64,000 bases of DNA from a virus, in the IMG/VR virus record IMGVR_UViG_3300036980_001087, positions 32,943 to 96,942 of that record. One strand, given 5' to 3'. Shown piece by piece: positions 28,498 through 59,911 of the stretch. The notes under the pieces were generated by a model, which was given only the letters and a program-made list of their open reading frames with translations, did not search any database and was not told where the DNA came from. The first letter of the stretch is position 1. Each line of letters opens with the position of its first letter. A program made the position numbers and the translations under genes.

Positions 28498-28755
28498 ATG
28501 GACCTAGAAATTAAATGTTCAGCCTATAAGTGCCATTGCACTATGGGAGTGCACGATGAGACCTATTGTGCAGATTGCTACAACGAACAAGGAAATCAGC
28601 TAGAGGAGTTTAAGAAAGACAACGAGACTAAAGAGGCTGATATAGATTCACTAAAATATACAATAGAGGCTTTAGAATTAAAGATCAGCGATCTAAAGGA
28701 AGTAATAAAGAACTGCACAACTTGCTCAGCTATTCTAGTAGCTAAAAACCTATAG
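28498..28755 (+). CDS. Zn-finger/coiled-coil protein, C-terminal tag ...ILVAKNL
   Basis: C-x4-C...CADC, coiled coil, CTTC. Confidence 0.55.
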   Translation: MDLEIKCSAYKCHCTMGVHDETYCADCYNEQGNQLEEFKKDNETKEADIDSLKYTIEALELKISDLKEVIKNCTTCSAILVAKNL

Positions 28756-28766
28756 AGAGGAGAAAA

Positions 28767-28997
28767 ATGCTAATCTATGTTAAATCCCCATATAAACAAC
28801 ATACCTTAATACTGGGGAAAATCCAGGAAATAACATATACCTTTGGTAAAGCTTATCCTTGGCGGATCAAAGTAGTTTGTCAAGAGAATAGTGGACTAGA
28901 AATTAATGTGGGGAGTATAATTACCTGCGTATCATTACGTGCCTTAAGCTTTATTAGACTAAGAAAGGAGAAAACGTGGAACGTAAGGAGTTTATAA
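28767..28997 (+). CDS. Hypothetical protein
   Basis: GAGGAG RBS, 76 aa. Confidence 0.5.
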   Translation: MLIYVKSPYKQHTLILGKIQEITYTFGKAYPWRIKVVCQENSGLEINVGSIITCVSLRALSFIRLRKEKTWNVRSL

Positions 28998-29338
28998 TTG
29001 AATTGCTAGCGCTACAAATGGAGGATGAGAAAATCGTTCTAGTAACAAAAGCGGGTTATCCTGAATCAACTGAGGAAGAAATCAAGAATCAACTGGCAGT
29101 AGCTAAGTCAGAAATTAGAAAGGAGGAAAAAGACCAACCAGATAAGATCATTGATCCTATTGAAAAATCTGATGTTCCTACTATACACCATATTTTGATC
29201 GGAGGGTTGAGAGAAAACAAAACCAACTCACAGCTCTTGGATGATCTGAAGAAACATCATTCAACCGTAGACGAAAAGAAATTGAAACAACGAGTCTACG
29301 AATATCGCTATCACTATAATCACGGTAAGATCAAATAA
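28976..29338 (+). CDS. Hypothetical protein; C-terminal helical domain resembles 59967-60134
   Basis: HILIGGLRENKTNSQLLDDLKKHHSTVDEKKLK vs SIIKNGFFQGKNSIQVFLMVKDQYPHYDDKKLR. Confidence 0.55.
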   Translation: MERKEFIIELLALQMEDEKIVLVTKAGYPESTEEEIKNQLAVAKSEIRKEEKDQPDKIIDPIEKSDVPTIHHILIGGLRENKTNSQLLDDLKKHHSTVDEKKLKQRVYEYRYHYNHGKIK

Positions 29339-29361
29339 TCCACCATAACATAGGAGGACCT

Positions 29362-29682
29362 ATGATCCAACTCGACTGGAAAGTCTTTGCCTGGTTTGTC
29401 TTGGCATTGGCTATCCTAAAGGGTATCATTACGGGCTTAACCAATCTGTATACCTACATTTACAAGGGAGGATATACGCTTGGTAGAAAGCAAATGGAAA
29501 GTGAAGATACAACCCAGTTACTCAAAGCAATTCAGGATGTTAAAACCGAGATGCCGGAGTCTGAACTTGCTTTAGTATTACTCTGGAGTAAACTGGTAGG
29601 AGCAGAAACAAAGAGCACTAAAGAAAAAGAAAAGGAACCAATTGGATTTGGACCAGCAAAAAAGGAGGAAAAGAATGCGTAG
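29362..29682 (+). CDS. Membrane-anchored protein ending in ...KEPIGFG
   Basis: N-terminal TM helix; overlaps AAA+ start; IGF tripeptide near C-terminus. Confidence 0.55.
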   Translation: MIQLDWKVFAWFVLALAILKGIITGLTNLYTYIYKGGYTLGRKQMESEDTTQLLKAIQDVKTEMPESELALVLLWSKLVGAETKSTKEKEKEPIGFGPAKKEEKNA

Positions 29683-30748
29683 TATTTCACACGATGAATT
29701 AAAGAGCGCGTTAAAGAAGTCTTACTTCAGTAGAGTAACAGCCTTTATATGGGGAGCTACTGGAATAGGAAAGTCAGAAACCGTAAGACAGGCTTGCCGG
29801 GAATTAGCTAAGGACCTCAAGCTTCAATATGCTGAGGGCGGAGAGCCGGAAGAGGGAAAGTTCACCGTAATAGACCAGAGGTTATCCCAGATGGACCCGT
29901 CAGATCTTAGAGGTCTGCCATATGTAACTAAAGATGGTAAGACTGGATGGGCGTATCCAAGCTGGTTACCTACTAAGGGCAAGGGAATATTACTTCTAGA
30001 TGAAGTCAATCTTGCGCCTCCTCTGGTTCAGTCTTCAGCATATCAGCTCGTATTAGATGGAAAGCTTGGAGATTATACTCTACCAGAAGGATGGGGAATA
30101 ATCGCAGCCGGTAATAGGGCTGAGGATAAAGCCTATACCTTCGAGCTTGCCGGTCCATTATGTAATAGGTTCGTGCATATGGAACTGGCTTGTCCACCTA
30201 TAGCGGACTGGACCACCTGGGCAATTGAGAACCAGGTAGATTCAAGAATAATCACCTTCTTGAATTATAAACCTCAGCATCTGTTCAAGTTCGATAGCAA
30301 ATTGAAAGAGAAAGCATTTCCTACGCCTAGATCGTGGGCGAGATATTGCTCTCCTCTAATCAAGGATGTTGTCGACAATACAGAGCTCTTAATCCTGATG
30401 GGATCAGCCATAGGAGAGGGCGTTGCTACGGAATGCGTAGCCTATCTGAAACTTACCAAGCAGATTGATCTTAAGGATATCTTAGAGCATCCTGAGAAAG
30501 CTGCCGATATCAAGGGGATTGATGTAAGATATTCCCTGGTAAGTGCCTTATCAGAACTCGTCAAGAAGGACACCAAGACCACGCTACCAAAAGTATGTAA
30601 GGTTGCGGAGCACTTCGAGGCTGAGTTTGCTATCTTACTTCTGAGATTCATCAAGGTCAATGTTCCGAAATTACTTGAGTTCATTCAGAAGGATAAGAGC
30701 GTTGCGGATGTCTACAAGAAATATATGAAGTATGTAATGGTTGAATAA
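29675..30748 (+). CDS. MoxR-like AAA+ ATPase (AAA_5 type)
   Basis: WGATGIGKS Walker A, LLLDE Walker B, AAGN, L.NRF.H, PTPRSW; start after GGAGG at 29675. Confidence 0.9.
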   Translation: MRSISHDELKSALKKSYFSRVTAFIWGATGIGKSETVRQACRELAKDLKLQYAEGGEPEEGKFTVIDQRLSQMDPSDLRGLPYVTKDGKTGWAYPSWLPTKGKGILLLDEVNLAPPLVQSSAYQLVLDGKLGDYTLPEGWGIIAAGNRAEDKAYTFELAGPLCNRFVHMELACPPIADWTTWAIENQVDSRIITFLNYKPQHLFKFDSKLKEKAFPTPRSWARYCSPLIKDVVDNTELLILMGSAIGEGVATECVAYLKLTKQIDLKDILEHPEKAADIKGIDVRYSLVSALSELVKKDTKTTLPKVCKVAEHFEAEFAILLLRFIKVNVPKLLEFIQKDKSVADVYKKYMKYVMVE

Positions 30749-30762
30749 CCTAAGGAGGTATA

Positions 30763-31959
30763 ATGAACCAAGAAGCTAAGGATAAGATAATCAAAGCGAG
30801 GGTTGCGCTTCAGAAGACACATCCTTTCTTCTCTTATCTTGCTCTTCATCTTCAGCCTACCGAGGTAGAAGCCAAAGTGGTTCCTACCTTGGGGGTTGAC
30901 AATCAAGGGAATCTTTATTATAATCCCGAGTTTGTCAATAAGATGACACAGGATGAAGTTAAGGGAGTGGTATGTCACGAGGTTATGCATATAGCCCTTG
31001 AGCATCTTAAAGGCTTAAAGGGCAAGGACGCTAAAGTTAGCAATGTTGCTCAGGATATTGTAATCAATGATATTATCCTGGAAAATCAACTTCAGCTTCC
31101 TAGGGAAGGATTACTTCCTCATAACCACGAGATAACGATCAATGGTAATATCAAGATCGTAAAGATAGACAAGAAGCCTTGGGAGCAAGTCTATCACGAA
31201 TTGGAAAAGAAACTTCCTAAGGAAAAAGTATATGGCTTTGATGAGCATATGCGAGGTAATGGAGATGGTAAAGATGATCCTAAAGATGGTAAGGGTCCAG
31301 CAGAAGGTAAAGACTGGAAGCAAATCATCAATGAGGGTTATGCTTATGCCAAGCTTCAAGGTAAGGCTCCGGCTGGAATGGATAGGTATGTAGAAGAACT
31401 CAACTATCCGAAATTAAACTGGAGGCAGATGTTACAGAAGTTCATAGTAAGAGAGATTCCATATGACTTCTGCTATACTAGACCATCTAAGCGATCTCTT
31501 GCTTGTGGTGTATTTATGCCTAGCGTTACAAGAGAGAGCCTAGAGATTGGAGTGGCACTTGATACTTCAGGTTCAATGTCACCTAAGGATCTGAAAGAGT
31601 GTCTAAGTGAAACCGTAGGAATAGTCAAGGCTTATAGCAATGTGAAACTTACGGTAGTAACTTGTGATGCTGAAGTTCACACAGTAGGAGAGGTTACTTC
31701 TGAGGAAGATGTAGCCAATCTTGAGATCAAGGGTGGTGGAGGAACTGACTTCATCCCAGTCTTTAAGTGGGTAGAAGAGAATAAGCCACAGATGAGACTG
31801 CTGATATTCTTCACGGATGGGTTTGGTTCTTTCCCTAATGATGCTCCACAGGTCAAGACACTCTGGTGTATTACACAGGGTGGACTGGAGCTAGACAAAA
31901 TACCCTTCGGAGAAAGGGTTAATCTAGACTTTAGAGATAAAGAAGAGGAGCAAGAATGA
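30763..31959 (+). CDS. DUF2201-type metallopeptidase (HExxH) + VWA domain protein
   Basis: HPFF..L, CHEVMH, MIDAS DTSGS, GGGGTDF, FTDG. Confidence 0.9.
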   Translation: MNQEAKDKIIKARVALQKTHPFFSYLALHLQPTEVEAKVVPTLGVDNQGNLYYNPEFVNKMTQDEVKGVVCHEVMHIALEHLKGLKGKDAKVSNVAQDIVINDIILENQLQLPREGLLPHNHEITINGNIKIVKIDKKPWEQVYHELEKKLPKEKVYGFDEHMRGNGDGKDDPKDGKGPAEGKDWKQIINEGYAYAKLQGKAPAGMDRYVEELNYPKLNWRQMLQKFIVREIPYDFCYTRPSKRSLACGVFMPSVTRESLEIGVALDTSGSMSPKDLKECLSETVGIVKAYSNVKLTVVTCDAEVHTVGEVTSEEDVANLEIKGGGGTDFIPVFKWVEENKPQMRLLIFFTDGFGSFPNDAPQVKTLWCITQGGLELDKIPFGERVNLDFRDKEEEQE

Positions 31960-33021
31960 ATAATGAATTGGGAGTATTCCTAAAGATGGGGCATTACTAT
32001 CGATGGATTTACTCCCCTAATGCCGTATTCCAAGCAAAACTATGCACCTTTTGTAATGGCAAGAATGTTACAAATTATAATAAGTGCATATTTGCGGGGA
32101 AGGGTGAGATAAGAGTACTGGGGATGACTGGATGTCTTGATCAAAGCCACTCCCTAGTAGAGATCACAGAACAAGAGTATGAAGCTAGAAGGCTAGCAAA
32201 AGCCGTGGAGGAACTGTGAAAGAACATATTATGGAGAACGGAGACTTAGCAACTGTAAATAGGTGGCACTTACAATTACAAGATTGTATAGTTAAGATTG
32301 TTGACTGTACAATGCCAGCTAATATCCTAGTTAGGGTAATGGTTCCTAAAGATGATGATACCTGGTATGCTAGGTTTCCAACTTGGTATGTACACTTTGA
32401 TGCTCTGGAAGTAATATCCGATCCTAGAAAAGTAGACCAACTTGAGGCAGAGATTTGCTTCAAGAACCTTTAAGGAGGAAGGATGAAACAAAATAACAAA
32501 GAACCAATGTTTGATGAGAACGAAGCCTATGTCAGAGAAAGGGATGGCAAAAGGCTTATCTTGGTAGTGCGTAAGTGTGACCAATGTCCTCCTGAAATGA
32601 CCTGTGATTATTGTAGGCAGATGTTGGTAGACGCACAGACCAAAGAAAAGTTTCCGGAATGTGTCTATCGTGAGAGAAAGTTATCTCTAGATGGATATAG
32701 AACTTGTCCGGCTAGTGAAATAGGGGCTCTAATCTTGGAGAATCTATGAAATATGTTGACCAAATCTGCATAACTAGAGGAGGTAAAGGTACACTTAAGT
32801 CTGGAATACGTAGGGAAGTCTGGAAAGTATACTTAGGAGGAGAGGGGGAACATCCTTATTGTGTAACCTTTCTTGGCTGGTATTCTTCTAGGGATGGTTT
32901 TATTTCCTATACGGGTAGAATTCCATATAAAAGAGGATTTCGTTCCGCTGAGGAAATTAAGAAAAGAGTAAGGTTAGCATCTAAACAAGAAAAACTAACA
33001 ATAGAATTAGCACACTACTAA
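31956..33021 (+). CDS. Four small tagged proteins (31956-32219, 32216-32473, 32483-32749, 32746-33021)
   Basis: First overlaps the VWA gene stop; ends ITEQEYEARRLAKAVEEL, EAEICFKNL, GALILENL, ASKQEKLTIELAHY. Confidence 0.6.
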
Positions 33022-33035: not shown

Positions 33036-33875
33036 ATGAGAGTAGACCAGAAAGAAATAAAGAAGTATCAAGCCTTGAATAGAAAGCTTAATACTTTCTG
33101 CTTGTTACAAAACGAGTTACAATTCAAGAATACCTATGATCCTAAGTTTAAGAATATACTTATGTGTTCAGCCTCTAAGCTGGTAGGATGTGAGGCTAAG
33201 ATCAAGATCAATCCTAGGGTTGAAGGCGAATCTAGGTATAATAGTAAGGAGTATGTTCTTACACGGCAAGGAATTAAAGAGAGCTTTGGTTATAATGGTG
33301 ACTTTAAGGCTAGGTTCATTCAATACTCTGGCTGGATTGCGGACTATGTCAGCGAGTATGAAGTTACAGCTGGTTTAGTCAAGCTACTCCAGAGTAAAGA
33401 GTGTCAAAGTCCAGAGGCACTTAGACTACATCTTCAAGCAAGAGAAGACATTAGTAAACTTGGTATTGAAGATGAAAACTATGCAGTTCACGTTCAGTCT
33501 AATAAGGTCTTTAGTGTATTTGGAAATATAGAAGCAGGGGAACAAGACAAAGAGGACAAGACCACTGAACTAATATTAACTACAAGTAGTGGCTGGTCTT
33601 CTAAAGCTCTTTCTCTCTGCACTCCTGGCTCAGTTAGTCTTTCCAAAAATATGTATCGTGGAAAGAGTTATGATGGAAATGTTATTCTGGGATTGTCCAG
33701 TATGGCAACTTTCATAGAGTTCCTTAGGATTTCTGAAGAGCCTACTTATACCCAGATAATGGACTTGCTTCAGGAACATATTACCAAGTGTCAGGCTCAC
33801 ATAAAAGCGAAGCAGGCTGCCTTAGATGTAGTTACAAATAAGTATGGGCAGTATTTGGTATTCAAAGAGTTATAA
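33036..33875 (+). CDS. Hypothetical protein, paralog of 35277-36152
   Basis: Shared YD.KF..I..C...KLVGC, RISE..TY, LDVV..KYG..L..KEL. Confidence 0.65.
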   Translation: MRVDQKEIKKYQALNRKLNTFCLLQNELQFKNTYDPKFKNILMCSASKLVGCEAKIKINPRVEGESRYNSKEYVLTRQGIKESFGYNGDFKARFIQYSGWIADYVSEYEVTAGLVKLLQSKECQSPEALRLHLQAREDISKLGIEDENYAVHVQSNKVFSVFGNIEAGEQDKEDKTTELILTTSSGWSSKALSLCTPGSVSLSKNMYRGKSYDGNVILGLSSMATFIEFLRISEEPTYTQIMDLLQEHITKCQAHIKAKQAALDVVTNKYGQYLVFKEL

Positions 33876-34185: not shown

Positions 34186-34473
34186 ATGAAAAGACCAGCA
34201 AAAGTAACGCTTCAAAGAGCAGTCAAGTTATTAAGGGCTACCAATGGAACAGTCTTCCGTGCCACATTCGTGAAGAGAACAGACGGCACCGTAAGAAACT
34301 TGGTAGGCAGGCTTGATGTGACCAAGGGCATCACAGGTAAGGGAATGGCGTATGACCCTTTCGATAAAGGACTTATGACAGTCTACGACTTCCAGAAGAA
34401 AGGGTTCAGGATGGTGAATCTCGAATCCTTAACAGAGATCTGTGTGAAAGGACATACCTATGCGATTAAGTAA
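34186..34473 (+). CDS. WYL_2 / SH3 beta-barrel protein
   Basis: FRATFVKRTDGTVR.L..RL...VYDFQKKGFRMVN. Confidence 0.75.
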   Translation: MKRPAKVTLQRAVKLLRATNGTVFRATFVKRTDGTVRNLVGRLDVTKGITGKGMAYDPFDKGLMTVYDFQKKGFRMVNLESLTEICVKGHTYAIK

Positions 34474-35280
34474 GTATTACACTCAAGATGGGGGAAATGT
34501 GTATACAATTAGAAAAATGAAAGGACCAGGTCTTAAGAATTGGAGAGTTACTTATAAGGGTAGGTTCTTTAAAAATGGGGAAGAGTTTGATACGGGCCTT
34601 GATGGTCCACATTATGACTATTATAACTTTGCGGATATTCGAAAGCACCTATATCCCATTACTAAAAAACAACTTATGATTTTAGTATTAAAACACTACT
34701 AAGGAGGCATTATGGAACAAGACTTGATTCTAGGATTCAAAGAACTTAGACGCAAGATCTGGGAAGGAATGTCAATAACAGAACTGTACCAAGTAAAGAA
34801 TAGCAGGCTGGAGATGCTTGATTCAGGTATGCATATCGATAAAAAAGATTTGGAAGAGATTAACAGGGAGTTAAGAAAGAGAGGGGAAAATGTCTGAACC
34901 ATATGCTAGAACCAAGATACCAATTGAGACCTTGATGGACGAAGCTTATGCTTGGTGGGAAAGTAAACTAGACCACGAGAAACAAAATATGTATTTAGAG
35001 TTGTATATGAAAGCGAAGAATATAGGACCAGAAGAAGTTCAATACTAAGGAGGTTAAGATGGCAAAGAGTACCAAGTTCAAGAAAGGTGAGTACGCGATT
35101 CAGATCAATGCCCCTATGGATAACTGCTTGGTAAAGATTCTAGACACACCTCGAGATGGGGCCGTGTGGCATGAGCACCTAAATAGTAATAGGCCAGATA
35201 CCGGGATCGTGAATGAGAAGTTCATTAGGCGAGCTACCAAGAAAGAAATTCTAATCCACGCCGTAAGAAAGGAGTATTGA
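34460..35280 (+). CDS. Four small proteins (34460-34702, 34712-34897, 34890-35048, 35059-35280), three with Tyr-terminal tag
   Basis: Ends ITKKQLMILVLKHY, GPEEVQY, ATKKEILIHAVRKEY. Confidence 0.6.
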
Positions 35281-36152
35281 TGATATTTCCAAGAGAAGAA
35301 AAGTTGAAGTATGAGAAGCTTCAGCGCTTGCTGGATAATCTTAAGGAGACCTGTAAGAAGTTGGAGATAAGTACCTACTATGATGAGAAGTTTATTACCA
35401 TAATCAAATGTGCATCTCAGAAGTTAGTCGGATGTACCGACGAGTTGCCCATAATGGTGGACTCTAGCAATCCTAAGGGGGTATACCAACTTAGAAGAAA
35501 GGGTCTAGTAATTCAGTTCGGATATTCAGGAGATCGTTATAAAATACCTGATTACAATTACTTATCAAAGATTATTATAGGCCCACATTCTGAGAGAGAA
35601 GATAATCGGGGATTCTTTAAGAAGTTTAGTACTGCACTACAAAGTCTCCAATCTCGGGCCCAGAATCCAGCTGGAGTTGGGATCCTCCTACAAGCGCTAC
35701 AAGATATCAAGGCTACCAAGTTCTATAAAAATACTGATGGTTGGTCATCTAATACTTCAGATCTAGCAATCGAAGGCAGTAGGCCCTTGGTAGTTCCTCT
35801 AGAAATACAAGCGTCTGAAGAAATTGAAGAAGAAAGAGAACGTGACTTTTATGATGATGCATCTTTAACCTGTTCAGTATCAGCTAGTAAGGTACTAGTT
35901 AACTTAAAGTATGATGAGTTGGAGCTTAAGTTTCTGAATGCTGGTACAAAGAAAGAGGAAGGATTCATAATAAAAGAAAGGATATGTTTATCTGATTATA
36001 TTCGGATCTCTGAACCGGCAACGTATGACTACATTACCAAGTTGATTCTTGATCTGACTGCTCAGGTAAACGCAAAGGTATCTAAAGAAGCTGCACATCT
36101 AGACGTGGTCCTGGAAAAGTATGGGCACTTCTTATGCTACAAAGAACTCTAG
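35277..36152 (+). CDS. Hypothetical protein, paralog of 33036-33875
   Basis: See paralog; ends KYGHFLCYKEL. Confidence 0.65.
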   Translation: MMIFPREEKLKYEKLQRLLDNLKETCKKLEISTYYDEKFITIIKCASQKLVGCTDELPIMVDSSNPKGVYQLRRKGLVIQFGYSGDRYKIPDYNYLSKIIIGPHSEREDNRGFFKKFSTALQSLQSRAQNPAGVGILLQALQDIKATKFYKNTDGWSSNTSDLAIEGSRPLVVPLEIQASEEIEEERERDFYDDASLTCSVSASKVLVNLKYDELELKFLNAGTKKEEGFIIKERICLSDYIRISEPATYDYITKLILDLTAQVNAKVSKEAAHLDVVLEKYGHFLCYKEL

Positions 36153-36164: not shown

Positions 36165-36437
36165 GTGAAAGCGAGCACGTATGAGGTAGGAGATGTAGTG
36201 GCTTTTAAAAGGGGAAAAGTAGTAAAAATATTAAGGGTTTCTAAAGTCTATCCTTGTGATGGAGAATGCGCGATAAGGGGTCAAAGGGAAGACGCCTGTA
36301 GACATTGTGATAAAAATTTCTACACAGGGATAATCCTAGCGGGGAAGGAGGGGACGCATAAAGGGAATCAAAGAAACTTAGCTGGATGTTTCACAAGTAA
36401 GCTGACGGAGGAAGAGTCGTTATACTATTCTTTTTAG
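36165..36437 (+). CDS. SH3-like Cys-insert small protein, tag LTEEESLYYSF
   Basis: YEVGDVV..., C-x3-C...CRHC; GAGGAGG RBS, GTG start. Confidence 0.6.
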   Translation: MKASTYEVGDVVAFKRGKVVKILRVSKVYPCDGECAIRGQREDACRHCDKNFYTGIILAGKEGTHKGNQRNLAGCFTSKLTEEESLYYSF

Positions 36438-37448: not shown

Positions 37449-38021
37449 ATGTTGGTAAGTAGAGGGAATCACAAACTTGGTACTGATACTTTGATCCTAA
37501 ATATAACTAGCGCAATGGATTGCATGTCCCGGAAGCTTGGCCTTTGTAAGATAGGGACCAAGTGCTATGCCATGAAGGCCGAGCGCATGTACAAAGCAGT
37601 CCTGCCTTACAGGCGTAGACAGACCGAGTACTGGGACCAGAACCATCCGGCCACGATTGCAATGGATCTCTGGGGGGAGATTCATAAGGGTACTACCAAG
37701 TCCAGAATTAAGTACATCCGGATCTCAGAAGCAGGAGACTTCAGGAGCCAAGCAGATGTGGACAAGTTGATAAAAATAGCAGAAATACTTGGTGCTCTTG
37801 ATGTTACGTTATACGGATACACGGCCCGTAGAGACCTGGCCTTTGGTAAGTGCCCGAGCAACCTGATCATGAATGGTTCGGGATTTATGATTCACAATAG
37901 CTTCACGGCCGTACCTAAAGCTAGTCTAGCCCAGCACAAGGTTACGTGCGCGGGGAACTGCCGGGGATGCAACCTTTGTAAGATCCGCGGTAAACTGGCC
38001 ATCAAAGTGGGGATACATTAA
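37449..38021 (+). CDS. GP88-like protein (radical-SAM-like Cys cluster)
   Basis: GNHKLG, C-x6-C-x5-CYA, IRISEAGDF, YGYT, C-x3-C-x2-C-x2-C. Confidence 0.7.
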   Translation: MLVSRGNHKLGTDTLILNITSAMDCMSRKLGLCKIGTKCYAMKAERMYKAVLPYRRRQTEYWDQNHPATIAMDLWGEIHKGTTKSRIKYIRISEAGDFRSQADVDKLIKIAEILGALDVTLYGYTARRDLAFGKCPSNLIMNGSGFMIHNSFTAVPKASLAQHKVTCAGNCRGCNLCKIRGKLAIKVGIH

Positions 38022-48213: not shown

Positions 48214-48641
48214 ATGTCTAAGCATAAGAAAATTTGTCCTAAAGTATTAAACGGAGATTGCCCATTTGGGGATGAACGGGGAGCATGTTACCACGCTAAA
48301 CTACATATGGATGCCCAGGAACAATGCGAGGATAATGGTATTTCTGGAGATCCCAATGATTCACGACAGTGTGGTAGTTGTATATCTTACGCTAAATTAT
48401 CTAAAAATGATAAGTTAAAAGTAATGTTAATGGAGTTATGATGGAAAAATATATTTGCCCTAAATATAAAACATGTACTGCAGTGTGTGACCACCAAGTA
48501 GTGCATGAGTATGGAGAAACGTGTACATATAGTTGTAGGCCCGAGAAGGAGGTTGATGGGACTACTATTCAAGAGGAGGAGTATCAAAAAGTACAATGTA
48601 GAAAAGCAACAGAAGAGGAAATTATTGAATCCAGTTATTAA
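48214..48641 (+). CDS. Two Cys/His-rich paralogs (48214-48441, 48438-48641) with tag
   Basis: ICP..C..CxHxxxH; ends LSKNDKLKVMLMEL, ATEEEIIESSY. Confidence 0.6.
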
Positions 48642-50521: not shown

Positions 50522-51110
50522 GTATTGCACACACTGTAAACGAACTAGAGATATAAAGTTTTTCTCTAAAACTAAAACTGAGAAGGACGGACATCAATAT
50601 GTTTGTAAGCAGTGTGTTGCAATATATAAAAGAGCACATTATAAAAAGAACCGTGTAAAATTATTAGAACAACATAAAAAGTATTATGTATTACATAGGA
50701 ACGAACGTATTTTATCTGCCAAAAACTATACTAGTAAACATCAGGAGCAACGAAAAGTGTATGTCCGTCAATGGCATAGAGAAATGTGCCATACTAATAT
50801 AAATTATCATATATTACAAAACCTTCGGAGACGACTTAACCATGCCTTACATGGCGCTTTAAAGGCCACGAATACAGTAAGTTTACTTGGTTGTTCTATT
50901 GAGCAGTTAAAACAGCACCTTGAGAAACAATTTAAACCCGGCATGACTTGGAATAATTACGGTAGGGTTGGTTGGGTAATTGACCACATTAAACCCTGTG
51001 TTAGTTTTAATTTTATTAACCCAGAAGAACAAAAGAAGTGTTTCCACTATACTAATTTACAACCTCTATGGTATGTAGATAATCTTAGAAAAGGCAAACA
51101 TGCAAGATAA
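50514..51110 (+). CDS. HNH / endonuclease VII-like homing endonuclease (copy 3)
   Basis: CTHC..CKQC N-terminus; W.IDHIKPC...CFHYTNLQPLW. Confidence 0.85.
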   Translation: MAKYCTHCKRTRDIKFFSKTKTEKDGHQYVCKQCVAIYKRAHYKKNRVKLLEQHKKYYVLHRNERILSAKNYTSKHQEQRKVYVRQWHREMCHTNINYHILQNLRRRLNHALHGALKATNTVSLLGCSIEQLKQHLEKQFKPGMTWNNYGRVGWVIDHIKPCVSFNFINPEEQKKCFHYTNLQPLWYVDNLRKGKHAR

Positions 51111-51879
51111 ACAAATTCTCTGCATTGATTTTAGTGAGCTCTTCTTCAGTTCAATATTTGGCTGGAGAAGAGCTTGTCAAATGGGCAATAAGTTACCATT
51201 AGAATTTATGGTACTTAAGAAGTTATTTTCCTATTGCAAAGCATTTCCAGGTAGAGAAATATATATCATGTGTGATGGTACAAAGACCTGGCGTAAAGAA
51301 GTATATCCTGAATATAAAGCACAACGTAAAGAACAGAGGGATAAGTATGAAGATCTAGACTGGACTGATCTTTTTGCTAGATATGGCCAGATGATTAGTG
51401 CCATAGAGAACTTCACTCCTATGCTTACTTTTAGGGACGATATACTTGAGGCTGATGATCTTGAGGCCATCTTAGCTAAGGATGGGGAAGACCTTATTAT
51501 CTTTTCATCTGATAAAGACCTTAACCAATTAACTACTTATTCCAATCTTAAACTAGTATCTCCTAAAGGTAAAAAAGTAAAGGGTAAATTTGTTTTTAAA
51601 GTTGTGGAGGATCCGCTTAAAGAACTAGATAAACTTGTGATGAAGGGGGATCGTTGTGATAATGTTCCACGTGCTTCTTCCGAAGCACAGAGAATGATAA
51701 ATAATAAAATAGTTAACCTCATTAATCTACCTAAAAATATTGAGGATAGATGTAGAGCAGTACTTAATCAAAAAAGATGTAAATCCCCTGACTTAATTGG
51801 CTTTTGTAACCTTTACCGGTGGGATTTCGTAGGCATTGAATTAAAGAGAATTTATCCTGGGTATTTTAAAAATGAATAA
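51100..51879 (+). CDS. 5'-3' exonuclease / RNase H (FEN family)
   Basis: IDFS, CDG..TWRKEVYPEYKAQR, EADD, SSDKDL.QL, GD..DNVP. Confidence 0.9.
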   Translation: MQDKQILCIDFSELFFSSIFGWRRACQMGNKLPLEFMVLKKLFSYCKAFPGREIYIMCDGTKTWRKEVYPEYKAQRKEQRDKYEDLDWTDLFARYGQMISAIENFTPMLTFRDDILEADDLEAILAKDGEDLIIFSSDKDLNQLTTYSNLKLVSPKGKKVKGKFVFKVVEDPLKELDKLVMKGDRCDNVPRASSEAQRMINNKIVNLINLPKNIEDRCRAVLNQKRCKSPDLIGFCNLYRWDFVGIELKRIYPGYFKNE

Positions 51880-52459
51880 TAGACAACAATACATGCAAAT
51901 TTGGAGAAACCTGCATAGTACACACATTAAAATGTATGGATTACATTATCGTAAGACACATAAAGTAACAATACAGAAATATAGACTGAAGCATAAAGGT
52001 GAATATTATAAATTACATAAAAAAGAACATCAACTATGGGCAAAGGCCTATTATAAAAGTCGTTCTGATTACTTTAAGAGACTCCAGAGTAAGTATCAAA
52101 AGACACACAAAGTACAGTATAATAAATACCGTAGAGAACGAAGAATTGATGACATTAATTTTAAATTAAGATATTATTTAAGTAATCGTATTAGAGGATG
52201 TTTAAAACTTAAATATAAATTTACACATTTTAACAATCTACTTGGTTGTTCTGTAGAACAACTTAAACAACACTTAGAACAACAATTTAAACCAGGTATG
52301 TCTTGGGAGAATTACGGTTATTATGGTTGGCATATAGATCATATTAGGCCCTGTGCTTCTTTTGATCTTAGTAAGCCAGATAAACAAAAACAGTGTTTCC
52401 ATTATACTAACTTGCAACCTTTGTGGGCAAAAGATAATATGTCAAAGGGAAGTCGTTAA
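51872..52459 (+). CDS. HNH / endonuclease VII-like homing endonuclease (copy 4)
   Basis: WHIDHIRPCASFDLSKPDKQKQCFHYTNLQPLWAKDN identical in protein to copy 2. Confidence 0.85.
   Translation: MNNRQQYMQIWRNLHSTHIKMYGLHYRKTHKVTIQKYRLKHKGEYYKLHKKEHQLWAKAYYKSRSDYFKRLQSKYQKTHKVQYNKYRRERRIDDINFKLRYYLSNRIRGCLKLKYKFTHFNNLLGCSVEQLKQHLEQQFKPGMSWENYGYYGWHIDHIRPCASFDLSKPDKQKQCFHYTNLQPLWAKDNMSKGSR
52328..52438. repeat. 111-bp inverted repeat with 11828-11938
   Basis: 106/111 identical; all 5 differences synonymous. Confidence 0.85.
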
Positions 52460-52466: not shown

Positions 52467-52745
52467 ATGAAGACAAAAATATTAAAATATAAAAAGGGAG
52501 ATATTTATAAACATAAAGATAATTTTGGGAAGGCTGAATATTTTATTGTTCGTCCTTGCACCTATTGTACCATGGGATTTTGTGAAATAGCAGTAGCTAA
52601 ACAAACTAAAAAGGAATTAGAGTGTAGGGGATTAGGCTTATATGTACTAGATAGACAAGATTGGATCTCTACTTGTTCTAATTCCCCATATCACCATGAA
52701 ATGACTAAAGTAACTGAAGCTGAAAAGCTACTAATCGGATATTAA
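52467..52745 (+). CDS. Cys-insert SH3-like tagged protein (ends VTEAEKLLIGY)
   Basis: YKKGDIY, CTYC...C. Confidence 0.55.
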   Translation: MKTKILKYKKGDIYKHKDNFGKAEYFIVRPCTYCTMGFCEIAVAKQTKKELECRGLGLYVLDRQDWISTCSNSPYHHEMTKVTEAEKLLIGY

Positions 52746-52746
52746 T

Positions 52747-53031
52747 ATGGTAGAATTAAAACAATATAAAGTTTCGTTTGAAGTACTCTGTAATTGTTCA
52801 GATAACCGTACTATTAAAGGTCTATTGGGGCATTTTGAACGTACTAATCCACAGGAACACGGGAAAGGCACCATATATAAATATATTTGTTCTAAATGTG
52901 GACAGGTACACCTCACCTTAGAACATTATACCTGTACTTTGGTACTAGATATTAATAGCACTGATAAATTGTGTAGCCATTGTACCGGTTTAATTATGCA
53001 ATTAAATCTTGCTGAATATGGAGGTGCTTGA
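52747..53031 (+). CDS. Zn-finger hypothetical protein
   Basis: CNC...CSKC...CSHC. Confidence 0.5.
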   Translation: MVELKQYKVSFEVLCNCSDNRTIKGLLGHFERTNPQEHGKGTIYKYICSKCGQVHLTLEHYTCTLVLDINSTDKLCSHCTGLIMQLNLAEYGGA

Positions 53032-53471
53032 TGTCCGTTAGACCAATTGTAACCGATCGTAGAGAATTATCTAGGCCTTGTGGAAAAGTACTTGATGGAG
53101 AAGATATTTCCCAAATCATTCAGGACCTAAAAGATACATTTGAGCCTCTTAAGGGACGTGGCTTTGGATTAGCTGCCAATCAGATTGGCTATAATAAAGC
53201 AGTGGCCTATATAGTTTTTGCTGGGCAAGAGTATATTATTATAAATCCTATAAAGTTAGAGGCTAGGATGCCCATTCCATTTAAGGAGGGCTGCTTTAGT
53301 TTTAGTGGACTTGAGATCAAGACCTCCCGTTATAATTACTTTAAAATTAAACATGGACTAGGAGAAGGAAAGGAAGAGGAGTTTAAGGGTCTATTAGGGA
53401 TAGTTGTGCAGCACGAGGTAGATCATTTAAATGGCATAACTTTATTTCAAAGACGCTGGAGAGCTAAATAA
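53028..53471 (+). CDS. def: Peptide deformylase
   Basis: GFGLAANQIG, EGCFS, QHEVDHLNG. Confidence 0.92.
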   Translation: MMSVRPIVTDRRELSRPCGKVLDGEDISQIIQDLKDTFEPLKGRGFGLAANQIGYNKAVAYIVFAGQEYIIINPIKLEARMPIPFKEGCFSFSGLEIKTSRYNYFKIKHGLGEGKEEEFKGLLGIVVQHEVDHLNGITLFQRRWRAK

Positions 53472-53917
53472 TGATAATACTTAAAGTATTTATTTGGATG
53501 ATTGTATTGGCCTTATTACATGCGCTCCAAGAGACCCAAATCGAAGGAAGAAATGGTTGGGCTAGGCACCTACCTACCTTTCAGATCAATGTATTTTTTT
53601 ATAAGTTCTTAGGCGGAAAGCCCTTAACTGGGTACCATCTTTATATGCTTTTATTATTTATTACTATTTTCCATGGGGTATTTTTATTTCAAATTTGGAG
53701 TTGGCGATTAGAGATGTTAATATTTGGTTTCTTTTCTATATATTTTGTAATTGAGGATTTCTTATTTTTTGTAGTTAATCCTCACTATAGTTTAAGAAAT
53801 TTTAAAAAAGGGAATATTGAGTGGCATAAACGTTGGTTCTGGGGATTACCTTATACTTATTGGTGGGGATTAATTATTGGAACTGCTCTATTGCTGTGTG
53901 GAGGCCAAGTAAAATGA
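53471..53917 (+). CDS. Multi-pass membrane protein
   Basis: Four hydrophobic segments; E.QIEG..GWA, EDFL.F..NP. Confidence 0.65.
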   Translation: MIILKVFIWMIVLALLHALQETQIEGRNGWARHLPTFQINVFFYKFLGGKPLTGYHLYMLLLFITIFHGVFLFQIWSWRLEMLIFGFFSIYFVIEDFLFFVVNPHYSLRNFKKGNIEWHKRWFWGLPYTYWWGLIIGTALLLCGGQVK

Positions 53918-54273
53918 AGAATTTAGGATGTCATAATTGTAAATGGGCAAGGTCCTCTGGGGACGTGGGTGACTTTTTTAGGTGGTTATTTAAATTACCC
54001 AAAAGTTATCCTCGCTGTGCTTTAAATACAAAACATCCTTTATTTAAGCAACAAGATAGGGATCATCGCGGTTTATTATTAGATAAACCTAAAAATTTTG
54101 GACTCTTAAAAGCAATAGTGGACAAATTAGATGATCACCGGGATTATTGGGATTCAGATTGTGGGCTTAATTCTAATTTTGAATGCCCTTGTTTTCATAA
54201 ACAGTTTACTAAAATTACCCAACAGGAGTTAGAGGATTTACTTATACGCTTAAAAGTGGAGTTTAGCTTATGA
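53914..54273 (+). CDS. Cys-rich tagged protein (ends ITQQELEDLLIRLKVEFSL)
   Basis: CHNCKW...C...C..N...C; GGAGG RBS. Confidence 0.55.
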   Translation: MKNLGCHNCKWARSSGDVGDFFRWLFKLPKSYPRCALNTKHPLFKQQDRDHRGLLLDKPKNFGLLKAIVDKLDDHRDYWDSDCGLNSNFECPCFHKQFTKITQQELEDLLIRLKVEFSL

Positions 54274-54590
54274 CAAGTGCCAATAGATTTTGGTTAGCTT
54301 GGACAATACTTATCCTTTTATGGGCTTTTTTATGCACTAGTAATATTTTTGCTATGACATTTAAAGAATATATTAATCAGCCAATTACTATTACAGAGAC
54401 TAAGGGAGAATTGAGATTAAAGTGGCATAATTTTTTTGGTTGTGATTTATTTAAGCCTTATTTTGCAATCAAAGATCTAGAAGATTCCTTTACTGTATTC
54501 ACAGCATTAGATCTCGGAAGATTAAAGGGGCGATTGCATTTTGGAAATAACTATAAGTCGATAGAATATAAATTTAAATATGAATTCTAA
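54270..54590 (+). CDS. Secreted protein with beta-signal-like C-terminus
   Basis: Signal peptide ending NIFA; ends SIEYKFKYEF. Confidence 0.5.
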   Translation: MTSANRFWLAWTILILLWAFLCTSNIFAMTFKEYINQPITITETKGELRLKWHNFFGCDLFKPYFAIKDLEDSFTVFTALDLGRLKGRLHFGNNYKSIEYKFKYEF

Positions 54591-55731
54591 AGTTAGATTA
54601 GTCTTTGGATTATCTATACTTACATATTTTATTCAGGGGGTTGAGGGCCTCCCAGGACAAAGTTTATTTGTCTTTATGAAGACAAAGCTAGGCATGACTC
54701 CACAAGCAATCATGTGGTTTGGTACATTTATAGGCATAGCCTGGCTTATAAAGCCAATCATAGGTGCCTTAATAGACAAACTATTTGGAAAGAAATGGTG
54801 GTATTTTGGGGCCGTCCTGCTAAGTATGGGCGCATGTGCTCTTTTAGCTAGATTAAGCCTTCCAATCGTGCTCCTAGGCTGTTTGTTAGCCCTTTTAAGC
54901 ACGGCTGCCAGCATTAGGGACATTTCGGTAGACGGAATAGCAGTTTGTTCAGGTAAGACTGAGGGCATTTGTGATAAATTACAATCTGTGCAGTGGATTG
55001 CAGTAACTATTGGAGGTCTCTTGGTAGGTATCGGGGGAGGACTTATAGCACAGTACCTACCTTACCAAGTGGGATTTGCAATACTTATTCCTCTATATGC
55101 AATAGCTGGAATGTTAATACTTAAATATAAACCTGAACAAAAAGAATGCCAAGTTACAATGCATTCAGTAATACAACTATTTAAAGATAAACGATTTATA
55201 TTAACTTGTCTTTTTATATTTCTTTATAAATATAGTCCGTCCTTTGGCACGCCCTTAGGCTTTATTATAAGGGATAAATTTCATTGGTCAGAAATTTTTA
55301 TTGGCGTACTTGGTACAATAACTGCAGTAACTAGTATCATCGGAGCCTTAATATATTATAGGGTATCTAAAAGAATAGATGCAAAAAAATGGATCACTAT
55401 TTCAATTTGGTTAGGGGCCATTACTACATTATTTTATCTTTATTATACTCGTTATACTGCAATAGGTTATGATGTTGTGTTTAGTTTAACTGGAATGTTT
55501 TTTCATTTAATAATTATGACATTCATGGCTGAGAATTCAGTTACCGGCCTAGAGACCACTTCTTTTGCTACACTATGTGCCATAAGTAATTTAGCAGGTA
55601 CAGCAGGAAGCGCTTCAGGAGCATTGTTACTTCCCATCATAGGCTTACCTGGATTAATTATTCTATCAGCATCCACATCATTTCTTTGTCTACCATTAGT
55701 ACCAATTATATTTAAGAAGAGTAATGTTTAA
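54580..55731 (+). CDS. BT1/FBT-family (folate-biopterin) MFS transporter
   Basis: YFIQG..GL, K..LG..P, W.IKP..G...D, D.SVDG, LQS..W; ~12 TM. Confidence 0.75.
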   Translation: MNSKVRLVFGLSILTYFIQGVEGLPGQSLFVFMKTKLGMTPQAIMWFGTFIGIAWLIKPIIGALIDKLFGKKWWYFGAVLLSMGACALLARLSLPIVLLGCLLALLSTAASIRDISVDGIAVCSGKTEGICDKLQSVQWIAVTIGGLLVGIGGGLIAQYLPYQVGFAILIPLYAIAGMLILKYKPEQKECQVTMHSVIQLFKDKRFILTCLFIFLYKYSPSFGTPLGFIIRDKFHWSEIFIGVLGTITAVTSIIGALIYYRVSKRIDAKKWITISIWLGAITTLFYLYYTRYTAIGYDVVFSLTGMFFHLIIMTFMAENSVTGLETTSFATLCAISNLAGTAGSASGALLLPIIGLPGLIILSASTSFLCLPLVPIIFKKSNV

Positions 55732-56125: not shown

Positions 56126-56521
56126 ATGTGGAGAGTTGGAGTATTATTGAAAAATGGAATACCTAAGGCGGAAACTTTTCCTACTAGGGAAGCAGCCGAT
56201 GAATGGGTATTAACTTTAATAGAAACAGAAGGGGTAAATTTAGTTAGATATAAAAATCTAGAGACTGGAGAAACTTCAGAGGAGAAATTTTAAATGGGCC
56301 AGAGAAGTGATTGTTGTAATGCAAAAGTAAAAATAGTAGGTGAAACTGATCCACATTATGTTTGTCGTAGGTGTAAACAGGTCTGTCATGTTATAATGAA
56401 AGTACGGCAAGAATGGGGACTTGATCCTAGTACAAAGATAATTCCTACTAAAAAGCGAAATAAAAGAACAAGACTAACTCCCAAAGAAGAGAGGGAGATT
56501 ATGCGAGATCTATTATATTAG
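56126..56521 (+). CDS. Two small proteins (56126-56293; 56294-56521 Zn-finger ending LTPKEEREIMRDLLY)
   Basis: SDCC.A...Y.C..C..C. Confidence 0.55.
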
Positions 56522-56529
56522 GAGGGAAT

Positions 56530-57993: not shown

Positions 57994-58979
57994 TGGTTTA
58001 CGCCTTTGGTGCTTATGGTACTAATAATATTGGGGATGAAGCTATATTTGCTGGATTAAAGCATGAATATCCAGACGCAATACAAATATATGTAAACAAG
58101 CCCTGGTCCTGGTCCCCAACCGCAAATCTTCCCATATGGTATGCAGATTTTCTTACAGGAGTGTGTAAATTTACTAAAGAGGACACCCTTATAATTGGTG
58201 GTGGTGGATTATTGCACAGCCTTAAGGCCGTAAATGACTATTATACAATGGCCTCTTTAGTAACTGAAGCGGGAGGTAAAGTTTTAATTGAAGGTATTGG
58301 GGCTGAGGGAATTCAATCTAGCTACAAAGATATTGTTAAGCAACTTTTAAGTCTGGCTAGCCATATCTCTGTTAGAACTACTACATCTAAAGACTTATTA
58401 CAGCCATTAACCAAAAATAAAATAGACGTGCGTAAAGACTTTGCATATTCTATGGCTACAAAATCTAATACTCCTGGTCCCCTATCAACACAACGGTATA
58501 TTGGAATTGTGGTTGGTGGGGCCGAAGATTTACATGTTTATGATGAACTTAGCAACTTATTAGCAAAGTATACAGTTGGACCAGAGCATTATAATTTTTT
58601 ATTGATACCTCATTCAATTTCTTATACAAATCCAATGAATAATGATCTATTAATCTTCCAGTATTTATGGTCTAATTGTAATATTTATCATGCTAAACGT
58701 GAGGAACGAATTTATATTTTAGATTATACTCCACATGATCCAGAAGAGGCCCTTAATTTATACAAGGATTTAATGCTTGGATGTATTGGATGGAGATATC
58801 ACTCTTTAATATTTAGTGAGATGGCCAATGTTCCAATGCTATTAGCTGCACCTACATTTAAGAACATGGCCTATGTTAAAGACGTTAAAAGATCCAACTT
58901 AATTGTAAAGCAGAGCAATGAAACTTTAGAGCAGGCATTTAATAATTTTATACCATTACTTGCAGTTCAACAATTTTAG
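57993..58979 (+). CDS. Polysaccharide pyruvyl transferase family protein
   Basis: GAYG..NIGDEAI, IIGGGGL, GIG, ISVR, D.A, RYH..I.S...VP. Confidence 0.8.
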   Translation: MVYAFGAYGTNNIGDEAIFAGLKHEYPDAIQIYVNKPWSWSPTANLPIWYADFLTGVCKFTKEDTLIIGGGGLLHSLKAVNDYYTMASLVTEAGGKVLIEGIGAEGIQSSYKDIVKQLLSLASHISVRTTTSKDLLQPLTKNKIDVRKDFAYSMATKSNTPGPLSTQRYIGIVVGGAEDLHVYDELSNLLAKYTVGPEHYNFLLIPHSISYTNPMNNDLLIFQYLWSNCNIYHAKREERIYILDYTPHDPEEALNLYKDLMLGCIGWRYHSLIFSEMANVPMLLAAPTFKNMAYVKDVKRSNLIVKQSNETLEQAFNNFIPLLAVQQF

Positions 58980-58992
58980 GTATATAATATAT
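58960..58992 (+). promoter_or_regulatory. Class III promoter
   Basis: TTGCAG-N17-TATAAT within GGTATATAATATA. Confidence 0.6.
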
Positions 58993-59223
58993 GGTAGTAG
59001 CAGATTTTAATTTAGATATTACTAGTGCATTACAAACTTTAACTGCTTTAGTTAAATTTCCTGGAGGACATTGTCATAAGGTACATATTTTTACTAGTCC
59101 ATCAGAATTAAATATAGCTACTCCTTTTTTTGATGTACTTTATATAGATGGAATACGTAAGAACATAGCACAAGGGCGGATTAACAAATTAAAAGACCAA
59201 ATAATTAACCTGGGAGGGTAAAG

Positions 59224-59661
59224 ATGGAAGGAATACTGCAAGAATTAAGCGGGGAGTTGGTTCGTATCGATTCAAAATGGTATAAAGTTGCTTCACCTCA
59301 GTACGTGCCTAAAGAAATGGGCATTAAGGTTTCTTTTAGTACTGATGATGCGGATCCGGGAATGATTAAGTTTATCAAGGCCTTTGTAGCCGGAGAAGGC
59401 AAGCCTACTACTAAACCTTATGTTAAAAAAGCGTATGGCCAGGCAAAAGCAGAGCCCGCCTCAGGAGGAGCTACCCCTGGTCCTAAATCTACCGGTTATG
59501 GTAGTGAGGCCGACGTTAAGGGTAAAGAAGTGGGTTGTGCTATTGGTGCTGCTGCACAGATATTATCCGGTAGTGGTGAAGCACCTTCAGTTATTCTTGT
59601 TAAGATGAAGCAGCTGGTCGAAGGGCTCTTAGCAATATCGAAGGAATTTAAAGTTAAATAA
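59224..59661 (+). CDS. Hypothetical protein (possible ssDNA-binding/annealing)
   Basis: GGAGG RBS, OB-like N-terminus, flexible linker, helical C-terminus. Confidence 0.4.
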   Translation: MEGILQELSGELVRIDSKWYKVASPQYVPKEMGIKVSFSTDDADPGMIKFIKAFVAGEGKPTTKPYVKKAYGQAKAEPASGGATPGPKSTGYGSEADVKGKEVGCAIGAAAQILSGSGEAPSVILVKMKQLVEGLLAISKEFKVK

Positions 59662-59662
59662 A

Positions 59663-59911
59663 ATGGAAAAACAAATAACTATAAGAGTATGTGATAGATG
59701 TACTTGTAAAAAGCCGAGACGTGCAGTTATTAGATGCATTATATGTCAAAGAGATGTCTGTTCTGAACATAGAAGTTGGAATGATTTCTTTGATGGCCTT
59801 TGTAGTGAATGTAGTACTGCTATAGAGGAGCTTAAGCCTGCACAAAAGGCACAAGTACAAAAACAAATAGCAGACATACTCGCGCCTATTATAGTTGTAC
59901 ATAAGTTATAA
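59663..59911 (+). CDS. B-box-like Zn-finger tagged protein (ends ILAPIIVVHKL)
   Basis: CDRC, CIIC..DVC..H, CSEC. Confidence 0.55.
   Translation: MEKQITIRVCDRCTCKKPRRAVIRCIICQRDVCSEHRSWNDFFDGLCSECSTAIEELKPAQKAQVQKQIADILAPIIVVHKL

Follow-up and report, generated by a model that had tools for sequence, protein, structure and literature searches.

C-terminal docking peptides are known from the T4 proteins gp43, gp33 and gp55, which dock on gp45, from SSB-Ct, and from the ssrA and SspB-XB tails. On a larger scale, the PRANC/F-box-like ankyrin proteins of poxviruses have a folded domain of some 50 residues with which they dock on host Skp1, and small proteins often have a terminal helix packed against a small barrel or zinc knuckle, as in Sso7d and the chromo-like folds. 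Here we describe a C-terminal tail that is carried by a set of small early proteins in a 64,000-nucleotide stretch of DNA from an uncultured phage (the window), which forms the terminal 64 kb of the 96,942-bp IMG/VR virus record IMGVR_UViG_3300036980_001087 (positions 32,943 to 96,942). Many of the genes in question lie near an AAA+ ATPase gene and a VWA-peptidase gene, and for vWA-MoxR pairs a published model holds that the VWA protein captures a client peptide and the MoxR ATPase releases it (Kaur, Burroughs, Iyer, Aravind 2020, PMC7159879).

The tail of this phage is like the hub-docking peptides in that unlike bodies end in one short peptide whose last residue is hydrophobic or aromatic; those peptides are extended and sit on replication and repair enzymes, whereas here we find a predicted capped helix, 10 or 13-14 residues long, at the end of some 20 small proteins. 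The poxvirus proteins offer a parallel in layout, namely a viral multigene family whose variable heads bind targets and whose constant C-terminal module would serve one machine, but their module is the folded domain mentioned above and the phage module a helix of 10-14 residues. Sso7d/Sac7d, chromo-like and WYL_2/Sm-like proteins are comparable in combining a small beta-barrel head with a short amphipathic terminal helix; in Sso7d-type folds, however, the helix is a private structural element, which is not common to zinc-finger heads and shows no concerted shift within a genome. The MoxR-VWA ternary conflict systems (PMC7159879) share with this locus an AAA+ ATPase beside a VWA protein with an intact metal-ion-dependent adhesion site (MIDAS), which here is fused to an HExxH peptidase, and a linkage to a diversifying set of proteins. 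Unlike in those systems, the third components (VMAP, iSTAND, FtsH, beta-propeller) are absent and arrays of tiny tail-bearing proteins are found instead, the ATPase/VWA pair is common in phages that have no array, and the ATPase can be assigned to MoxR only weakly.

The observation of a common tail is confirmed. All 26 open reading frames (ORFs) that the sequence-only reading had listed as ending alike are present, with their stops where it had placed them and with the C-termini that it had quoted; 19 of them constitute the core set of tails and seven a looser set. Because the ORFs were called mechanically, some of their starts are uncertain (notably 38977/39103). A tail consists of a cap, hydrophobic residues at -5, -4 and -3 (and at -7 in the longer form) and a hydrophobic or aromatic C-terminus, with a net charge that ranges from -3 to +4. 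The cap is Ser or Thr in 16 of the 19 core tails, which then have E/Q or K/E at +3, and Pro or Asn in the three that end at 38654, 47299 and 39750. The strict pattern [LIAMV][TS]x[EKQ][EQ] is found in 12 of the 19. Located 8-22 aa from the end, it occurs in 13 of 67 small plus-strand ORFs of the window, compared with 0.67 (maximum 5) in 2000 composition-preserving shuffles, and in 12 of these ORFs the last residue is, in addition, Y, F or L, for which 0.1 are expected. The same pattern is 28-fold rarer at internal positions of these proteins and occurs in none of the 23 proteins longer than 150 aa. Enrichment over shuffled sequences, which had been proposed as a check, is borne out, as is the statement that most recognisable enzymes and structural proteins lack the tail.

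Since the pattern had been picked after seeing the data, real proteins from T4, SPO1, Thermus phiFa and the N4-like phage G7C were added as controls. With an ORF caller applied to both strands, the window yields 12 strict matches, and 11 of its 67 small ORFs combine the strict pattern with a terminal Y, F or L, against none of 158 small control ORFs (Fisher p = 9e-7); after collapsing paralogues, 7 of 57 units do so (p = 7e-5). The length from cap to C-terminus peaks at 10 (n=7), 13 (n=5) and 14 (n=3) residues, while the controls are flat.

No close relative was found among 50,697 deposited phages. IMG/VR was searched with an alignment of 29 diverse VWA-peptidase homologues, which returned 80 loci, and holds a syntenic sister phage of 95 kb with 30-100% protein identity (G001); a metagenome scan yielded one 13-kb sister contig (L005) and one fragment. 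The best and third-best VWA matches by identity (L012 in genome G002 and L014 in genome G004) have tail arrays of their own. A geometric rule, which requires a Ser/Thr cap exactly 10, 13 or 14 residues from the end, followed at +3 by Gln or an acidic residue, a pair of hydrophobic residues between -5 and -3, and L, Y, F, I or M as the last residue, is matched by 9/67 ORFs in the window, 12/81 in G001, 4/36 in L005, 8/62 in G002 and 14/146 in G004, as opposed to 2/1256 in the controls. The remainder of the 96.9-kb genome contributes just one extra member (genome positions 1134-1397). Chance is ruled out by the shuffles, the control phage ORFs and this geometric rule.

The tails are also the better conserved part of the proteins. 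Of 15 orthologue pairs, 14 show higher conservation in the final 15 residues than in the remainder (mean difference 12 points), a bias that small ORFs without the tail do not show (Mann-Whitney p = 0.002), and synonymous differences affect 22.6% of the codons at conserved tail residues and 30.4% of those in the bodies. The scan of related phage genomes that the sequence-only reading had called for gave a positive result: G001 and L005 keep the tails and add members that have no counterpart in the window (..CRKLTKEEEILIYY and ..CREATPEEVAIIELEYY). Nucleotide identity between the tails of different genes in the window equals the expectation from synonymous resampling, and among 16 paralogues of L014 with near-identical tail peptides it is 0.626 against 0.618 expected; the likeness is therefore old and does not stem from recent duplication or gene conversion. 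The constraint on the tail is therefore long-standing and acts on the peptide, with a purifying selection stronger than on the bodies. That the conservation is at protein level had been proposed from the use of both Tyr codons, and it is upheld by tails that out-conserve their bodies while synonymous sites still vary; the terminal Tyr is indeed encoded six times by TAC and six times by TAT, and the cap codons vary among tails.

Part of the tail end owes its composition to the next gene. In 7 of the 19 core tails, the Shine-Dalgarno (SD) sequence of the downstream gene (GGAG) lies inside the last codons and yields a Glu at -2 or -3, which accounts for this residue in KEY, LEAY, VEKL and MEL; in the other 12, the SD lies beyond the stop, and five of these then have gaps of 44-305 nt. 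The E/K residues reported near the tail end are thus present, but in 7 of 19 cases they represent a downstream SD read in frame. As a separate observation, the share of TAC among the terminal Tyr codons (6/12) compares with a background use of 19%, and every such TAC is followed by TAAGGAGG (at 33021, 34702, 46796, 47299 and others); terminal TAC seems to be favoured by its context at stop/SD junctions. The whole likeness might be an artefact, whether of chance, of an overlapping downstream SD or start, or of a nucleotide element such as a promoter or recombination cassette read in frame, and the SD-encoded Glu, the over-use of TAC before TAAGGAGG and a synonymous change slightly lower in tails than in bodies would all suit this explanation. 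It is contradicted by the 12 tails without an internal SD and the long gaps behind five of them, by a nucleotide identity no higher than the peptides lead one to expect, by the varied cap codons, and by an enrichment of about 60-fold or more over the 1256 control ORFs. With an overlap in only 7 of 19 tails, an origin as a by-product of the SD is ruled out, and the synonymous expectation likewise rules out a nucleotide cassette, a promoter or gene conversion; artefact explanations are excluded for practical purposes, and we consider them vanishingly improbable.

Structure models were made with AlphaFold2 for two proteins, those that start at 48441 and at 34460, the latter with low confidence. 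For 48441 (18-row alignment), the predicted local distance difference test score (pLDDT) is 72.6, and the tail forms a helix at residues 58-65 with a pLDDT of about 81-85, the maximum of the chain; the low-confidence model of 34460 has helices at 57-63 and 69-77. These models predict that the tail is helical after the cap. The element h-[ST]-x-x-[EQ], often TPEE or TPKE, is what we take to be the classical capping box with a hydrophobic staple at a helix N-terminus. The likeness lies in this element itself, often with Pro at N1, and it explains the start of the helix only, not the fixed length, the hydrophobic stripe, the Y/F/L end or the restriction to one group of phages. The proposal that [LIAMV]-[TS]-x-x-E is a helix cap holds as a match to the capping box, but the element is a textbook helix start and not a specific ligand motif. 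A membrane-targeting helix is ruled out by the net charge of the tails.

The analogies with SSB-Ct, the XB tail and HbYX that had been put forward fail, as the tail sequences match none of them. The acidic run and the Pro at -1 that mark the end of SSB-Ct are missing from all core tails, and none of these ends like ssrA (..LAA-COOH) or like the XB tail (LRVVK). HbYX has its Tyr in the penultimate position, while here Tyr is last, with the exception of the tail at 47299 (..SYY). The beta-clamp consensus QL[SD]LF/QLxLxL was not found in the tails either: Gln occupies position 1 of that motif only in the tails ending at 34702, 38260 and 39750, the core tails having mostly K, R or E there and ending in x-x-Y/F/L.

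The proteins with this tail had been described as about 25 unrelated ones. This is correct insofar as at least two body types (Cys/His-rich and SH3-like) and several singletons carry the tail; it is incorrect insofar as seven members are Cys/His paralogues, the ORFs that start at 33036 and 35280 are paralogues too, and several members share a KxGD strand. The seven form one family, confined to this phage clade, with the pattern MxKxICP-x(3-5)-C-x(4-8)-C-x-H-x3-H ... C, followed by the tail. When the last 14 aa are removed, hhalign convincingly links the bodies of this family only (up to 94%), and body homology is undetectable for the other 12 or so tagged members. On the plus strand, as are all ORFs of the set, the family comprises 38021-38260 (79 aa, tail TKEQLLLEAY), 38260-38433 (57 aa, TPEEVMLSDF), 38445-38654 (69 aa, PKKTRLKLIVKEY; its G002 homologue terminates in ..YLTNKL), 38654-38839 (61 aa, long tail TPELLEKIEAEKIVTNF, then a gap of 305 nt), 46614-46796 (60 aa, TKTELIMEVY), 48214-48441 (75 aa, SKNDKLKVMLMEL) and 48441-48641 (66 aa, TEEEIIESSY).

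An SH3-like N-terminal strand of the form K-x-G-D/E-h-h is present in four further members: 35059-35280 (73 aa, N-terminus KFKKGEY, tail TKKEILIHAVRKEY), 36165-36437 (90 aa, strand EVGDVV and a CxxC pair, 10-residue tail TEEESLYYSF, with a 190-nt gap directly 3' of it), 39266-39517 (83 aa, strand FEVGMWVKD, tail TEQEKLRLMVEKL) and 52467-52745 (92 aa, strand KYKKGDIY and Cys, tail TEAEKLLIGY). Orthologues keep the N-terminal strand and the tail on either side of an indel-rich middle; 35059-35280 and its G001 counterpart, for instance, have identical N-termini and tails around a middle that varies and contains indels. The common KxGD N-termini hint, at the level of sequence, at a second family. 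The rest of the core set consists of 31956-32219 (87 aa, Cys-containing body, long tail ITEQEYEARRLAKAVEEL), whose start overlaps the stop of the VWA-peptidase gene, 32746-33021 (91 aa, 13-residue tail SKQEKLTIELAHY after a basic helix), 34460-34702 (80 aa, beta-rich body without Cys, TKKQLMILVLKHY), 38977-39282 (hydrophobic N-terminal segment, TPKERFDYYVQSL; the minimal form starts at 39103), 39517-39750 (77 aa, NEDEQMAVLLKML, with Asn as the cap), 47084-47299 (71 aa, PKDVMDKLLVSYY, and an internal tail-like stretch GTKEVVVLLMNE), 53914-54273 (119 aa, Cys-rich, long tail TQQELEDLLIRLKVEFSL) and 56294-56521 (75 aa, zinc-ribbon-like head and basic linker, TPKEEREIMRDLLY). If started at 38977, as its 100-aa orthologue in G001 suggests, the product of 38977-39282 would be a membrane-anchored member of the set. 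The internal stretch of 47084-47299 (..YGTKEVVVLLMNE..) may record an internal duplication or the fusion of two small genes.

The looser members are 28498-28755 (Cys-rich head and coiled coil, end ..SAILVAKNL), 32231-32473 (body weakly similar to that of 35059, ..LEAEICFKNL), 32483-32749 (Cys-rich, ..SEIGALILENL), the two paralogues 33036-33875 (279 aa, ..YLVFKEL) and 35280-36152 (290 aa, ..FLCYKEL), 40387-40749 (120 aa, ..LIRINFNF, which reads ..IKIHFNY in G001) and 59663-59911 (Cys-rich, ..APIIVVHKL). Searches with 20 tagged proteins found no family in Pfam or PHROGs, and the ESM Atlas returned nothing usable for the tagged proteins; a homologue search with 36165 found only itself, and the model of 48441 had no match by Foldseek against the PDB or by VIA-align. 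A profile of the tail (35 positions) compared with 1.84 billion proteins retrieved two proteins of 82 and 80 aa, which probably belong to the clade itself.

Outside the sister phages, each lineage has its own version of the tail. G002, in which the VWA protein is 53% and the structural genes are 31-72% identical to those of this phage, has about 24 of 44 small ORFs at locus L012 that end in h-[TS]-K-x-[ED]-x-L-L-E-K-L. The G004 record covers 144.5 kb of a jumbo phage that is otherwise unrelated (VWA identity 40%), and about 24 of the 56 small ORFs at locus L014 end in [KR]-K-[LI]-[ST]-x-[DE]-E-h-M-V-E-x-L. The records of G002 and G004 are incomplete (30% and 45%). In both arrays, the cap stands 10 residues from the end and the heads are mixed, with MKFKKGD-type N-termini, members of the Cys/His family, CxxC pairs and others; the L014 members have similar lengths and MKFKKGD-type N-termini, and some pairs are detectable by BLAST. 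We measured self-similarity as the share of C-terminal 8-mer pairs with a BLOSUM62 score of at least 12, relative to 8-mers 20 residues upstream. It amounts to 16.3% vs 0.4% in L014, 7.1% vs 0.1% in L012, 1.2% vs 0.3% in the window and 1.6% vs 0.4% in G001, with a median over 53 loci of 0.4% vs 0.3%. This unbiased measure thus singles out L014 and L012, while the window and G001 exceed the background with much lower uniformity.

The endings are Y, F or L in the window, ..LLEKL in G002 and ..MVELL in G004, and the Cys/His family ends in L in one of seven members here and in all three recognisable Cys-rich members in G002; the ending tracks the genome and not the family of the head. The tail is also portable: the WYL_2 domain protein at 34186 ends with its domain in this phage, and its homologue in G002 has an added tail-like ending. 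That no description of this tail system existed had been supposed from the outset, and our literature search found none. New here are the arrays across lineages, in G002 and G004, and their linkage to the ATPase, VWA-peptidase and GP88-like genes.

These three genes lie on the plus strand of the window. The AAA+ ATPase (29675-30748) belongs to PHROG 1297 (E = 9e-83); its Pfam matches are sub-threshold only (AAA_5, E = 0.012; AAA_3, E = 0.11), which leaves an assignment to MoxR weak. The adjacent gene at 30763-31959 encodes a fusion protein in which a DUF2201 metallopeptidase (HExxH) is joined to a VWA domain whose MIDAS is intact (Pfam DUF2201 VWA-like, E = 6e-25); its HExxH and MIDAS residues D267, S269, S271, T328 and D352 are invariant in the 29 homologues. 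The GP88-like protein (PF17338) is encoded at 37449-38021. Sequence searches of the PDB with the three proteins found nothing useful. Only two deposited viruses have relatives of the GP88-like protein, the archaeal Halogranum tailed virus 1 (HGTV-1) and Synechococcus phage S-SRM01.

The ATPase and VWA-peptidase genes are linked to tail arrays in three lineages, namely that of this phage (G000/G001/L005), G002 and G004, and each of the four genomes with arrays has the GP88-like gene as well; at the other loci, which have no array, none was seen up to 10 kb from the VWA gene. Twelve of the 19 core members follow the VWA gene within 8 kb. In G004, whose contig has 146 small ORFs, all 17 tails that match the regular expression fall within 117-131 kb, around the ATPase (128.1-129.2 kb), VWA-peptidase (126.3-127.6 kb) and GP88-like (117.9-118.3 kb) genes, and besides these three genes G004 and this phage have just two weak matches in common. 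The ATPase gene adjoins the VWA gene in 79 of 82 loci searched, and 764 deposited phages, N4-like ones among them, have the pair. No tail arrays were found at 78 other loci with the same VWA protein or in N4-like G7C and Thermus phiFa, which rules out that such arrays are a general attribute of phages with this VWA protein.

We favour, with a confidence that is about evenly balanced, the reading that the tail is a selected, portable and constant helix on fast-evolving early gene families, which provides them with a common contact handle. It would be a short C-terminal alpha-helix of two or three turns that opens with a hydrophobic residue, a Ser/Thr cap and a Glu/Gln three residues on, bears a hydrophobic stripe at -3, -4 and -5 (and -7) and closes with a free C-terminus that is hydrophobic or aromatic. 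As the constant part of tandemly arrayed small early families, it would be read by one partner or by other tails, and the variable heads (Cys/His zinc-finger-like, SH3-like KxGD and others) would bind different targets. We read the tail as more than a private structural element of each protein; the conservation of the peptide against divergent heads, the variety of those heads, the fixed-length hydrophobic end and the genome-specific ending argue for a common role. Several points weigh on the other side. As a helix start the cap motif is generic, terminal helices on small barrels or zinc knuckles are common, and the variable charge of the tails leaves only their hydrophobic positions to be read in common. 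The tails of the window are far less uniform than those of L014, much of the member count is due to paralogues, and the joint conservation of N-terminal strand and tail in orthologues also fits an intramolecular clasp. Such a clasp is the core of a second explanation, in which the tail is a family signature only: a few ancestral proteins would have had a terminal helix that packs on the conserved N-terminal strand or zinc knuckle, evolves more slowly than any other part and has no external reader. The single Cys/His family behind seven members, the tandem arrays, the co-conserved ends around a variable middle, the generic cap, the top pLDDT of the tail helix in the 48441 model and the kinship among L014 members (MKFKKGD-type N-termini, similar lengths, pairs detectable by BLAST) are all consistent with it. 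We consider it a strong alternative, if somewhat less probable than not, given that the same tail occurs on heads without detectable homology and with differing cysteine patterns, that different head families of one genome share a lineage-specific ending, that the chain stops exactly at a hydrophobic residue at fixed distances from the cap, and that a homologous WYL_2-type body exists with and without the tail.

If the tail is a common contact handle, the question is what it contacts, and the ATPase/VWA pair, which the sequence-only reading had already named, is the most concrete candidate, with circumstantial support from genomic linkage, though an unlikely one in our estimate. The tails might deliver the heads, or cargo held by the heads, to the linked machine of AAA+ ATPase and metallopeptidase-VWA for remodelling or timed proteolysis, the invariant Glu or the free C-terminus being captured by the MIDAS of the VWA domain or by the peptidase; we judge such a delivery improbable. 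Even so, the arrays surround the pair in all three lineages, G004 shares with this phage essentially only the ATPase, VWA-peptidase and GP88-like genes and has its 17 matching tails clustered in a 14-kb stretch about them, the VWA gene and the first tagged ORF overlap at stop and start, neither HExxH nor any of the five MIDAS residues varies among the homologues, and the published model already couples peptide capture to release by MoxR (PMC7159879). Against these stand the 78 other VWA loci, G7C and phiFa without tagged arrays, the weak MoxR assignment, the variable charge of the tail, and the prospect that the linkage reflects synteny by descent or co-transfer of a block of early genes. A tentative extension, to which we likewise give little weight, is that the proteins form a set of adaptors with variable heads on host or phage targets, whose helix hands the heads to an ATPase/VWA-metallopeptidase/GP88-like machine, and that the block moves between unrelated phages. 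The reader could also be a host hub or a host degradation system, such as the sliding clamp, a ClpXP/Lon-type protease or RNA polymerase, in which case the differences between lineages would mirror different hosts. The lineage-specific endings would fit this, the tagged genes lie in the early region behind sigma-70-like promoters, and the xLxhxh pattern of the 13-residue tails loosely recalls the clamp-binding hexapeptides. It is nevertheless very unlikely, as Gln stands at position 1 of that motif in few tails, the endings are unlike LAA, the XB tail, SSB-Ct and HbYX, and the predicted helix of the tail differs from the extended form in which clamp motifs and degrons bind.

The tagged genes are set in a compact early region. 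The virion genes occupy the minus strand at 1-24.7 kb of the window, and from about 25 kb onward there follows a dense plus-strand early region with strong GGAGG ribosome sites and with extended -10 sigma-70-like promoters at 25125, 37173 and 39814, in its rare gaps. Recognisable products of this region are RecA-like and RuvB-like proteins, DNA ligase, RNA ligase and a primase-helicase, in addition to the AAA+ ATPase, the DUF2201 HExxH-peptidase/VWA protein, an M17 leucyl aminopeptidase (47310-48212, plus strand), a trypsin/HtrA-like protease (48858-49922, plus strand), a peptide deformylase (53031-53471, plus strand) and an MFS/BT1 transporter. No sliding clamp gene was identified within the window. 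The region thus has four peptidase-type enzymes, which is unusual for a 97-kb phage. The trypsin-like protease has a 180-aa N-terminal part of no assigned family, and the only domain found in it is Trypsin_2 (residues 182-312), with no PDZ domain. Against a role as a shared reader of the tails, it also has no homologue in the (incomplete) records of G002 and G004. A 61-aa ORF at 34712-34897, which is 100% identical in G001, resembles residues 28-59 of this protease in its C-terminal half (37.5% over 32 aa, E = 6e-4).

Other genes of the window deserve mention. Amid the early genes, a membrane protein of 383 aa of the MFS/BT1 (folate-biopterin transporter) family is encoded at 54580-55731, and a collagen triple-helix repeat protein of 297 aa lies on the early strand at 41309-42202 (Pfam Collagen, 3e-17). 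HNH-type endonuclease copies that end in ..HYTNLQPLWA.DN are found at 9833-10351 and 11798-12331 on the minus strand and at 50757-51110 and 51872-52459 on the plus strand; two of the copies are missing from the sister phage G001, as mobile homing genes would be. The primase-helicase has 746 aa here (60926-63166) and corresponds in G001 to a single ORF of 1518 aa (L001:8729-13282), which contains an intein with a LAGLIDADG endonuclease within the DnaB domain (Pfam Intein_splicing, 2e-21) and, close to residue 64, a further in-frame insert of some 360 aa that has no Pfam match.

Phages keep most of their host-takeover and anti-defence functions in small early proteins, hardly any of which can be annotated. 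A constant tail that selection maintains on dozens of proteins with no other recognisable feature makes the whole class accessible to experiment at once: with the tail as the only bait, the common partner could be exposed, and the heads would then be a natural library of binders. The ATPase/VWA pair is widespread (N4 gp24/gp25-like) and has no known role, and its linkage to the arrays therefore provides a testable lead to the function of the pair.

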